A DNA stretch of 64,000 nucleotides from Escherichia coli. GTDB lineage: Bacteria > Pseudomonadota > Gammaproteobacteria > Enterobacterales > Enterobacteriaceae. This document shows positions 1,284-6,083 of the stretch, piece by piece. A program made the translations under genes and the position numbers. Below the pieces are notes generated by a model. The model had not been told where the DNA came from. It searched no databases and saw only the letters and a program-made list of their open reading frames with translations. Within the stretch, counting starts at the first letter, position 1. Every line of letters starts with the position of its first letter. Location of the stretch: NCBI RefSeq assembly GCF_003790525.1, contig NZ_CP033635.1. One strand, written 5' to 3'.

Positions 1284-2132
1284 ATGGCGACATACCTTAT
1301 TGGCGACGTTCATGGTTGTTACGATGAACTGATCGCATTGCTGCATAAAGTAGAATTTACCCCTGGGAAAGATACCCTCTGGCTGACGGGCGATCTGGTC
1401 GCGCGCGGCCCGGGTTCGCTGGATGTTCTGCGCTATGTGAAATCCTTAGGCGACAGCGTACGTCTGGTGCTGGGCAATCACGATCTGCATCTGCTGGCGG
1501 TATTTGCCGGGATCAGCCGCAATAAACCGAAAGATCGCCTGACACCGCTGCTGGAAGCGCCGGATGCCGACGAGCTGCTTAACTGGCTGCGTCGCCAGCC
1601 TTTGCTGCAAATCGACGAAGAGAAAAAGCTGGTGATGGCCCACGCCGGGATCACGCCGCAGTGGGATCTGCAGACCGCCAAAGAGTGCGCGCGCGATGTA
1701 GAAGCGGTGCTGTCGAGTGACTCCTATCCCTTCTTCCTTGATGCCATGTACGGCGATATGCCAAATAACTGGTCACCGGAATTGCGGGGGCTGGGAAGAC
1801 TGCGGTTTATCACCAACGCCTTTACCCGGATGCGTTTTTGCTTCCCGAACGGTCAACTGGATATGTACAGCAAAGAATCGCCGGAAGAGGCCCCTGCCCC
1901 ACTGAAACCGTGGTTTGCGATTCCTGGCCCCGTCGCTGAAGAATACAGCATCGCCTTTGGTCACTGGGCATCGCTGGAGGGCAAAGGTACGCCGGAAGGT
2001 ATTTACGCGCTGGATACCGGCTGCTGTTGGGGCGGGACATTAACCTGCCTGCGCTGGGAAGATAAACAGTATTTTGTCCAGCCGTCGAACCGGCATAAAG
2101 ATATGGGTGAGGGAGAGGCGGCCGCGTCTTAA
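1284..2132 (+). CDS. apaH: Bis(5'-nucleosyl)-tetraphosphatase (symmetrical) ApaH
   Basis: 282 aa [23 protein letters not shown]... metallophosphatase motifs GDxHG/GDxxxRG/GNHD; recognised as ApaH. Confidence 0.95.
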
Positions 2133-2156
2133 CGCTTTACCATTCAGGGAGGAATA

Positions 2157-2756
2157 ATGGCTGACTATTTTGAAATACGTGCTGATTACAATCAGCACAC
2201 CATCACGGTTTATCAGGCTTACAATGATGCAATCGCTGACGTCGCCGTACGTGACGGGCGATTTGGCGCACCTTTTTCATTCAACCGCATGACCTGGATT
2301 AAACCCTCTTTTATGTGGATGATGGAGCGTAGCAACTGGGGACTGAAAAAAGATCAACAACGCATTCTCGCAATCCGAATCAAACGCACCTTCTTTGATA
2401 CATTGCTGGAACAAGCGGTGCTAACCACGCCGGAAGCCCATGTCTATCCACATGCAGGAGTTTGGGAAACGTTATTTGCGCAAGCAAATGTATATGTTCA
2501 GTGGGACCCAGAACGCAGCATAAATGGCAAAAAACTGGAGCACCGATCATTACAGCTTGGTATTTCTCGTAACTTGATCAGTCAATTTAACGAAGACGCC
2601 ATTGTTGCCATTGATGATCTGACGCCGCTGGTGCGAAAGTGTCATAACCTTTTGATAAACGGTAAAACAACACAGGCGAAATCCTTCCTGCCGCCAGAAA
2701 AAATTTATCCTGTTAGTGCAACTGCAAGAAAGGCTTGGGGAATGAAAAATTCCTGA
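2157..2756 (+). CDS. Hypothetical protein, accessory (199 aa; Trp/aromatic rich; possibly DUF4291-like, from memory only)
   Basis: Complete ORF with strong RBS (GGGAGG, 7 nt spacer) 24 nt after apaH stop; AT-rich relative to flanking core genes; no counterpart at this position in the K-12 layout as I remember it. Confidence 0.6.
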   Translation: MADYFEIRADYNQHTITVYQAYNDAIADVAVRDGRFGAPFSFNRMTWIKPSFMWMMERSNWGLKKDQQRILAIRIKRTFFDTLLEQAVLTTPEAHVYPHAGVWETLFAQANVYVQWDPERSINGKKLEHRSLQLGISRNLISQFNEDAIVAIDDLTPLVRKCHNLLINGKTTQAKSFLPPEKIYPVSATARKAWGMKNS

Positions 2757-2791
2757 GACAAATACGCGCCTATTAAGCGGAAAATATCTAA

Positions 2792-3241
2792 GTGCGACAA
2801 ATCAACGCCGGGCTTAATACCAGAGAAATTATTCTGGAAATGATTGACGAAGCAGATGAACCCCCGTTTGCTGAGCAGCGAACCTGGCATCGCAGGCGAA
2901 TCGCTTTTCTTTGTGAGTGCATCAGCGTTGCTGTCGACTACGGCTTCTTCTGTTCTGTCTCTCAGCAGTCAATAATGAACATAACCAGGATGGCTGAAGA
3001 TGTATGGATAACAGAAAGTAAAACGACCCAACTCATTGATATCTGGCAGCAACTTAAGCAGCTTTATCCGCCAGAAACTATTCCCTATACCCAGCAGTTA
3101 CCCGCTAAAGAATTGCTTGAACTGCTACTTTCCAGTCCTGACGATCTTCGAATAATTGAAATCCCTGACATCATCGGCGATGTTTTTGATGACCAAACCT
3201 GGATTCGATTATTCAAAAAACACTTTGCTGATGTTATCTAA
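2792..3241 (+). CDS. Hypothetical acidic protein, accessory (149 aa from GTG; alternative ATG start at 2836)
   Basis: ORF 36 nt downstream of the previous ORF, same strand; D/E-rich composition; start codon uncertain (GTG at 2792 or ATG at 2836, both with weak RBS). Confidence 0.45.
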   Translation: MRQINAGLNTREIILEMIDEADEPPFAEQRTWHRRRIAFLCECISVAVDYGFFCSVSQQSIMNITRMAEDVWITESKTTQLIDIWQQLKQLYPPETIPYTQQLPAKELLELLLSSPDDLRIIEIPDIIGDVFDDQTWIRLFKKHFADVI

Positions 3242-3557
3242 CTACGATGTGATGTGTAACAATCTAAAATACATCGCCAGACGACAGACCAAAAAGAAAG
3301 TATTTAGCAGATACTCAACATTCTGACTTCTGTACAGAAATAGCAGAGTTTAAAAACTTAAAATTTCCGGTACTCATCAGAGAAACATCCTGTTTCTTCT
3401 GCAAGTTCATTTAATGCCGAGATGGCATCCTCGTTTACTTCAGTCCACTGTAGAGTGGCTTGAGGGTTTAGACCTACGCAATGAGCGCGACTCACAAAAT
3501 CGCGCTCACTGGTAAAATCAGACGTCTTATCGTTCAATTTGTAGTCATAGCAAAAAC

Positions 3558-6083
<2,526 letters not shown>

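Follow-up and report, generated by a model that had tools for sequence, protein, structure and literature searches.

The window analysed here is a stretch of 64,000 bp of an Escherichia coli chromosome, and the subject of this report is the spacer between its convergent genes apaH and folA, which carries a cassette of a DUF4291 gene (open reading frame 1, ORF1), a member of a very rare gene family (ORF2) and a decayed ccdA. The window shares 100% identity with the chromosome of E. coli SMS-3-5 (NC_010498.1) and thus represents the SMS-3-5 allele. Its genes are arranged in the order rsmA/ksgA (76-897), apaG, apaH, ORF1, ORF2, a small minus-strand ORF, folA and kefC (Table 1), with ORF1 and ORF2 on the plus strand and folA on the minus strand, and the genes around the cassette are housekeeping genes by their RefSeq annotation, not a defence island. 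The spacer (2133-3557) is 1,425 bp long and lies exactly between the two convergent stop codons; in junction alignments, the homology with K-12 stops exactly at the apaH stop codon and restarts a few nucleotides before the stop codon of folA. In K-12-type strains, the spacer is only 77 bp long and made up of a repetitive extragenic palindromic (REP) element. With a G+C content of 0.37-0.47, the spacer lies below both folA (approximately 0.53) and the region of apaH with its upstream flank (0.52-0.59).

Table 1. Features of the apaH-folA spacer and its borders, with positions in the window.
Feature	Position	Strand	Description	Source
apaH	1284..2132	+	final conserved gene of the surA-pdxA-rsmA(ksgA)-apaG-apaH operon	ORF list, RefSeq, K-12 junction alignment
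apaH stop codon	2130-2132	+		
Shine-Dalgarno sequence of ORF1	2147..2152	+	GGGAGG, 4 nt 5' of the ATG	direct reading
ORF1	2157..2756	+	199 aa, ATG start, pI (isoelectric point) 9.3, full-length DUF4291	RefSeq WP_000796361.1
ORF2	2792..3241	+	149 aa, GTG start, pI 4.57, truncated member of a very rare family	RefSeq WP_001248958.1
Non-coding AT-rich stretch	3242..3357	.	between ORF2 and the ccdA remnant, without Rfam family or clear terminator	
Decayed ccdA	3358..3537	-	CcdA-family antitoxin at 3358-3495	RefSeq
folA (dihydrofolate reductase)	3558..4037	-	convergent with the cassette; stop codon at 3558-3560	

The start of ORF1 follows the apaH stop codon after a gap of 24 nt, and no terminator-like hairpin was found in a terminator scan of 2133-2156. 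Scans of the spacer for Rfam families, repeats, promoters and terminators returned no RNA family, flanking repeats or mobile-element signature. An earlier, sequence-only reading of this DNA had described a short K-12 spacer that grows to about 1.4 kb here, two ORFs of 199 and 149 aa at the positions given in Table 1, a strong ribosome-binding site 24 nt behind apaH with no terminator in between, an aromatic-rich first protein and an insert more AT-rich than its flanks, and all of these statements hold: the spacer lengths, the G+C contents, the GGGAGG motif and the empty hairpin scan agree with them, both ORFs are present in RefSeq, and the ORF1 product is a basic protein (pI 9.3) with 6 Trp and an aromaticity of 0.116. 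Among its sequence-level statements, only the wording "highly acidic" for the ORF2 product is slightly strong, the protein being acidic with a pI of 4.57 and 24 Asp and Glu against 14 Lys and Arg, and the ccdA remnant in the last 200 bp of the interval was overlooked.

The states of the spacer were counted in 5,426 complete E. coli genomes. The ccdAB module occupies it in 2,025 genomes, the DUF4291 cassette in 540-542 (approximately 10% of E. coli), and the remaining genomes, approximately 2,860, have the K-12-like REP spacer as the empty state. The carriers of the cassette include O26:H11, O111:H8, enterotoxigenic E. coli (ETEC) O6:H16 and SMS-3-5-like strains, and the homology among the spacer states breaks at the apaH stop codon and a few nucleotides short of the folA stop codon. 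Three papers that cite Mine et al. (2009) regard this spacer as plastic and receptive to foreign DNA (PMC7232551; PMC3184786; PMC7167474). Between E. coli lineages, the synonymous divergence (dS) is 0.08-0.10 for ORF1 and 0.13-0.15 for ORF2, compared with 0.10-0.13 for apaH and 0.08-0.10 for folA, while the closely related GF43 allele lies under these ranges for all four genes. The ratio of nonsynonymous to synonymous divergence (dN/dS) is 0.08-0.27 for ORF1 and 0.14-0.45 for ORF2, the synonymous excess is significant for both (Fisher p <= 3e-4), and at least 80% of each gene is kept in approximately 535 of 540 genomes. Because the divergence of the cassette is in step with that of apaH and folA, its acquisition is ancient, not recent; cassette and flanks have descended together over the whole depth of E. 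coli diversity, with both ORFs held by selection. The horizontal acquisition suggested by the sequence-only reading is plausible from base composition, as an ancient event.

Outside E. coli, the arrangement recurs in Escherichia whittamii, and Escherichia albertii has recorded close homologues of ORF1 as well as of ORF2. In Superficieibacter electus, DUF4291 and an ORF2 homologue come after apaH at this very junction, where the sequence TAACGCTT that immediately follows the apaH stop codon is common to this genome and the E. coli cassette. The S. electus locus carries a PRiA4_ORF3-family gene of 206 aa (L008 5558-6178, minus strand) in place of the ccdA stub, which adds to the evidence that this spot collects unrelated passengers. 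Damaged alleles also occur naturally. In the O111:H8 strain 1074-2, DUF4291 is frameshifted and ORF2 is intact (L027 721-1307); in strain HH97, the cassette is partly deleted and more divergent (approximately 88% identity), and its DUF4291 is an annotated pseudogene without the N-terminus (L031 1500-1814). A further candidate allele with truncated ORF2 and intact ORF1 (P0007) was discarded, as every gene of its source assembly is fragmented: in GCA_046507445.1 (L023), rsmA, apaH, folA and kefC around the locus are all broken into pieces, and the truncated database proteins from it are consequently assembly artefacts.

ORF1 is matched over its full length by Pfam PF14124 (DUF4291), with residues 6-184 aligned to model positions 1-180 of 180 (E = 2.2e-68), which bears out the family name suggested in the sequence-only reading. 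More than 7,800 DUF4291 homologues of ORF1 were found at E <= 1e-5, and most of those listed from outside the Enterobacteriaceae, including Chryseobacterium and Prevotella, are 53-61% identical to it. In an alignment of 34 sequences, whose members named to genus span five phyla, the mean column identity is 63%, all 35 invariant columns are present in ORF1, and the family motifs IRA, YQA[YF], RMTWIKPS, QWDPER, [AS]xQ.G and LPxE..Y are kept. Such a level of conservation is atypical of arms-race toxins. The family has also been reported in fungi and animals (PMC12522546). It is absent from 50,697 phage records, and its plasmid-borne members are confined largely to megaplasmids and chromids.

Sequence and profile searches of the PDB with ORF1 and the DUF4291 profile returned no relative, and no informative match to ORF1, ORF2 or the ccdA stub came from NCBIfam, PADLOC or PHROGs. 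By structural modelling, ORF1 is predicted to have the core fold of the ADP-ribosyltransferase (ART) superfamily, and its closest fold relative is RhsP2, an RNA 2'-OH ADP-ribosyltransferase. A 2025 survey had put DUF4291 forward as atypical and ART-like, with the motifs QA[YF], WIK and [AS]IQ, placed it near diphtheria toxin and exotoxin A, suggested protein targets and offered docking as the support for NAD+ binding (PMC12522546). Under this motif assignment, the places of the canonical triad (H-Y-E or R-S-E) are taken in ORF1 by Q-A-Y, W-I-K and S-L-Q, with Gln where the catalytic Glu of strand beta-5 would be expected, and E119, the invariant Glu of QWDPER, is located on the strand that precedes the Q133 position. 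RhsP2 has an R-Y-E triad, is inactivated by an E>Q mutation and modifies the 2'-OH of structured RNA via a basic surface (PMC12340436). With RhsP2 as the nearest structural relative, RNA, not protein, is suggested as the target of DUF4291.

In Chryseobacterium, DUF4291 is found near NADAR, microbial PARG, DUF2971, SIR2 and ADP_ribosyl_GH (ADP-ribosylglycohydrolase) genes, while in Prevotella the neighbours are an NrtR-type NUDIX regulator, two NADAR, three ADP_ribosyl_GH and KptA/PTS_2-RNA. These two contexts agree with a published neighbourhood census of TetR (28%), NUDIX (18%), and Macro, ARH and PTS_2-RNA (approximately 10% each) (PMC12522546), and a bacterial PARG is known to reverse the RhsP2 modification (PMC11833690). 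A 159-aa protein without a recorded Pfam hit lies directly 3' of the Prevotella gene (L011 4609-5088); it looks by eye like a macro domain (GDATSP…ISNDIGGWGKGFVLAI), in which case an eraser would adjoin the putative writer. Elsewhere, DUF4291 comes after a histidine phosphatase in Listeria costaricensis, lies among oxidoreductases in Streptomyces, adjoins, in divergent orientation, a two-partner-secretion/FHA locus in Ralstonia and heads an array including an SMI1/KNR4 (SUKH) protein in Treponema.

Searches of Pfam, NCBIfam, PADLOC and the PDB sequences returned no match to ORF2, and a PDB profile search with its family found no relative; the family-library searches that the sequence-only reading had proposed for both proteins placed ORF1 in DUF4291 and left ORF2 without a match. 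A word-based homologue search with ORF2 gave no hits beyond Escherichia variants and a single protein of 57% identity, and an exhaustive profile search of 1.84 billion protein representatives brought the family to 19 representatives. Of approximately 100,000 species genomes, only 3 have a family member. Full-length members are 190-240 aa long and are composed of an N-terminal CPxC...VCxxC (Cys4) segment and an all-helical domain, with the conserved motifs GLSA, WHRRRIAF and W..LF.KHF. The E. coli proteins (149 or 155 aa) are without the Cys4 segment, and approximately 200 bp of intergenic DNA and 190 bp of ORF2 coding DNA are missing relative to Superficieibacter. In most E. coli alleles, the codon at 3239-3241 is CAA and the 155-aa protein ends in ADVIQLRCDV, while in SMS-3-5 a change of CAA to TAA at this position removes 6 residues.

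The family has been found in several genomic contexts. It occurs 3' of DUF4291 in Superficieibacter; alone between apaH and folA on an enterobacterial contig (L003) whose flanks are 81-83% identical to those of E. coli; in the interval between yqhG (DUF3828) and the lipoprotein gene yqhH of E. albertii (L016/L017 4001-4684), where a full-length paralogue of 227 aa with the Cys4 segment is followed by a 115-aa ORF and DUF4291 is not nearby; alone in a Spirochaetales metagenome-assembled genome; and in a Breznakiellaceae array of small unrelated genes (DUF4261, DUF1963, DUF3781, ankyrin repeats). The fold of the family has a weak likeness to SsdAI and Imm5-type immunity proteins (Foldseek E > 1), none of 17 family members has a Pfam hit, Imm families included, at E <= 0.001, and RhsI2-type immunity proteins are not among the top 60 structural matches listed. 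Matches to ORF2 only were also recorded at three plasmid places in the collection. One of them, an ORF2 fragment without ORF1 on the 202-kb resistance plasmid NZ_JBSQBT010000002.1 of E. coli ESBLEC_HM50 (L028 3001-3516), lies between IS1 and IS26, adjoins aac(3)-IVa and aph(4)-Ia, and looks like chromosomal DNA captured through IS26 activity.

The third element of the spacer is the ccdA stub, which can be aligned with ccdA(O157) for no more than 77 bp (3366-3442), at a nucleotide identity of 80.5%. This match covers the C-terminal toxin-binding part, the sole recognisably conserved part, in which the CcdB-binding sequence EDAISALNELAEETGCFSDEYRKF is kept. The N-terminal part is degenerate. The stub also has an internal deletion of approximately 13 aa and TTG or GTG as the only starts in place of ATG, and ccdB-like sequence is absent beside it. 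Having neither an intact ccdB nor a full-length CcdA, the locus does not belong to the ccdAB system; the stub is probably the leftover of a ccdAB module that was once at the apaH-folA site. It is present in all six alleles examined, with a ratio of nonsynonymous to synonymous polymorphism (pN/pS) of 0.35 that rests on 7 substitutions. A paper cited in PMC7167474, Mine et al. (2009), speaks in its title of decay of the ccdO157 system, which shares this site. Inside the degenerate part of the stub, 47 nt downstream of the folA stop codon on the folA strand, a 12-bp inverted repeat encloses a 9-nt loop (3479-3511); it has no T-run after it and may serve as the folA terminator in the cassette allele.

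The sequence-only reading had taken ORF1 and ORF2 for an obligate toxin/antidote or defence pair, and this is not supported, since co-occurrence elsewhere largely fails and the two families differ in size by orders of magnitude. Under a type II toxin-antitoxin (TA)-like or toxin/immunity arrangement, an RhsP2-like ORF1 product would poison the RNA of the cell and the ORF2 product would bind and neutralise it, for addiction or abortive infection. The layout invites this explanation, as a larger basic protein is followed 35 bp on by a small acidic one, Superficieibacter keeps the same gene order, the folds of the two proteins resemble toxins and an immunity protein, respectively, and the one broken allele examined in this respect (1074-2) has lost DUF4291 and kept ORF2, the direction that a TA system tolerates. 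E. coli is also not known to have the PARG-type erasers that accompany DUF4291 in Bacteroidota, which counts in favour of this arrangement. However, Escherichia and Superficieibacter are the only genera in which DUF4291 and ORF2 occur side by side, and the junction is the same in both, so that their co-occurrence amounts to a single evolutionary event, and a conserved neighbourhood of the two genes across unrelated genomes, the mark of a TA or immunity pair, was not found. The more than 7,800 DUF4291 homologues stand against 19 representatives of the ORF2 family; no ORF2 homologue lies near DUF4291 at any of six loci in Listeria, Chryseobacterium, Prevotella, Ralstonia, Streptomyces and Treponema (0/6), as judged by comparing the neighbours in the Bacteroidota and from gene lists or record annotation in the others; and ORF2 relatives without DUF4291 exist in at least four contexts (the L003 contig, E. 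albertii and two spirochaetes). The downstream neighbours of DUF4291 in Prevotella and Chryseobacterium were compared as candidate ORF2 homologues and are not homologous. The presence of ORF1 and ORF2 each in 540 E. coli genomes was rejected as evidence of coupling, because genes 35 bp apart in a single allele are uninformative in this respect. Furthermore, the Cys4 segment is lost from E. coli ORF2, the strong cross-phylum conservation of DUF4291 and its fungal and animal members (PMC12522546) ill fit a self-poison, and neither ORF nor the ccdA stub matches any family of PADLOC-DB 2.0 at E <= 1. A toxin-antidote pair is thus considered unlikely.

We favour, at somewhat better than even confidence, the reading that the plastic apaH-folA spacer is present here as an old allele with three independent passengers and no dedicated two-gene system, which draws on the gene identities, folds, population states, selection and lack of conserved pairing observed here. 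The first passenger would be an intact, selected DUF4291 gene, which, from its position, is probably co-transcribed with apaH by read-through from the ksgA-apaG-apaH operon. Its product may be a cytoplasmic NAD+-using or ADP-ribose-handling enzyme whose substrate is a highly conserved nucleic acid or nucleotide; it would have its biochemical neighbourhood among the KptA/Tpt1, NADAR, ARH, PARG, macro and Sir2 enzymes, and would be tolerated by the host as a non-toxic protein without a dedicated antidote. The second would be the truncated and still selected ORF2 of a very rare Cys4 and helical family with its own separate distribution, and the third a dead ccdA from the ccdAB module that once shared the site.

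Several points weigh against the reading of three independent passengers. The nearest structural relatives of ORF1 are nearly all toxins, and the best named structural match of the ORF2 family is an immunity protein (SsdAI). ORF1 and ORF2 are separated by 35 bp and have stayed together in two genera, which leaves room for a lineage-specific toxin/inhibitor relationship. Q133 is an invariant Gln where the catalytic Glu is aligned (PMC12522546), and with the E>Q mutant of RhsP2 being inactive, DUF4291 may not be a classical transferase. Co-transcription with apaH is deduced only from spacing and the lack of a predicted terminator, and the enzymatic activity, substrate and non-toxicity of ORF1 are inferred.

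A joint interpretation, in which DUF4291 is an endogenous RhsP2-like RNA ADP-ribosylating enzyme held in check by ORF2 in enterobacteria, is given a low probability, a little under that of the toxin-antidote pair. The enzyme would be expressed in Escherichia and Superficieibacter from the tail of an operon for RNA modification and decapping (ksgA, apaH), other phyla would remove its marks with PARG, macro, ARH and NADAR erasers, and the enterobacteria, which have no such eraser neighbours, would have recruited the ORF2 protein as an inhibitor of DUF4291. The cassette would then be an RNA ADP-ribosylation module, reversible or kept under restraint, of a previously undescribed kind.

An equally doubtful alternative is a protective islet, in which all the genes of the spacer guard against incoming poisons, with ORF2 as an orphan immunity protein directed at a toxin that competitors deliver, the ccdA stub as an anti-addiction factor against plasmid CcdB, and DUF4291 in the repair or detoxification of ADP-ribosylation. 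It draws on the resemblance of the ORF2 family to SsdAI and Imm-5-like proteins, on the spirochaete array around a distant ORF2 member, on the Treponema array with SMI1/KNR4 (SUKH) headed by DUF4291, on the NADAR, ARH, PARG and, by eye only, macro-like genes around the Bacteroidota members, and on the toxin-binding region kept in the ccdA remnant; a role as defence modules that counter ART toxins has been proposed for ADP-ribosylhydrolases of the NADAR, PARG and macrodomain families (PMC11833690). However, a protein of ART fold normally writes a modification and does not erase it, the immunity links are structural only and weak, NCBIfam gives no immunity names to the neighbours of the distant ORF2-family members, ORF2 is truncated, and the ccdA remnant has no ATG and a pN/pS drawn from 7 substitutions.

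A new type of anti-phage defence system, triggered by infection, is very improbable. Nucleic acid-directed ARTs do serve in phage defence, as in DarTG and CmdTAC (PMC11618068; PMC11543638), and the segment is variable, AT-rich and present in approximately 10% of strains, but it matches no PADLOC family and has neither mobile-element hallmarks nor flanking repeats, DUF4291 is missing from phage records and strongly conserved across phyla with eukaryotic members (PMC12522546), and the two genes are not a conserved pair. Its flanks are housekeeping genes and no defence island. That both ORFs are remnants without function at a recombination hotspot, comparable to the ccdA stub, has just as little probability: ORF2 is truncated at the N-terminus and in the SMS-3-5 allele also at the C-terminus, decayed alleles exist (1074-2 and HH97) and, going by its title as given in PMC7167474, Mine et al. 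(2009) report decay of the ccdO157 system at this site, but purifying selection is significant on both ORFs across the full depth of E. coli divergence, every invariant family residue is kept in ORF1, and approximately 535 of 540 genomes retain at least 80% of each gene.

Read as an old allele with three passengers, the spacer reveals no new defence or TA system, and much of it is already known, as RefSeq annotates the cassette, the hotspot has been published and the family of ORF1 has been described. The claim of an undescribed system was therefore overstated, with DUF4291 proposed as ART-like in 2025 (PMC12522546), although the variable AT-rich insert behind the claim is real. The value of the locus lies in DUF4291, a very large, unusually conserved and uncharacterised family of bacteria, fungi and some animals, of which E. 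coli has a copy in approximately 10% of strains, including enterohaemorrhagic E. coli (EHEC) O26 and O111. The clean site, with natural empty, ccdAB and frameshifted alleles as controls, makes a convenient entry point to the function of the family, and the structural link to RhsP2, together with PARG and other erasers near the Bacteroidota genes, leads to the hypothesis of an RNA or nucleotide substrate, not a protein. For the folA-apaH/ccdO157 hotspot, the cassette adds a third, long-lived state.

Among known systems, ccdAB(O157) at folA-apaH is inserted at the same place, between the same two stop codons, and a ccdA-derived stub is still carried by the cassette, which differs in having no ccdB, a degenerate ccdA and two plus-strand genes unrelated to Ccd proteins. 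The SsdAI (PDB 7JTU chain B), DUF416 and Imm-5-like helical proteins have no sequence or profile similarity to the ORF2 family, which has an extra N-terminal Cys4 segment (lost in E. coli), and ORF2 differs further in that no cognate delivered toxin is encoded beside it. The C-terminal toxin domain of RhsP2 from Pseudomonas aeruginosa (PDB 7RT7), delivered by type VI secretion, has 10% sequence identity to ORF1 and no profile-level sequence link to its family; ORF1 is without the Rhs cage, PAAR and delivery domain, and the R-Y-E triad of RhsP2 contrasts with an invariant Gln at the proposed third motif of DUF4291. With DUF4291 as described in PMC12522546, ORF1 shares the QAY (20-22), WIK (47-49) and S-L-Q (131-133) motifs and the architecture of a single domain of approximately 200 aa.

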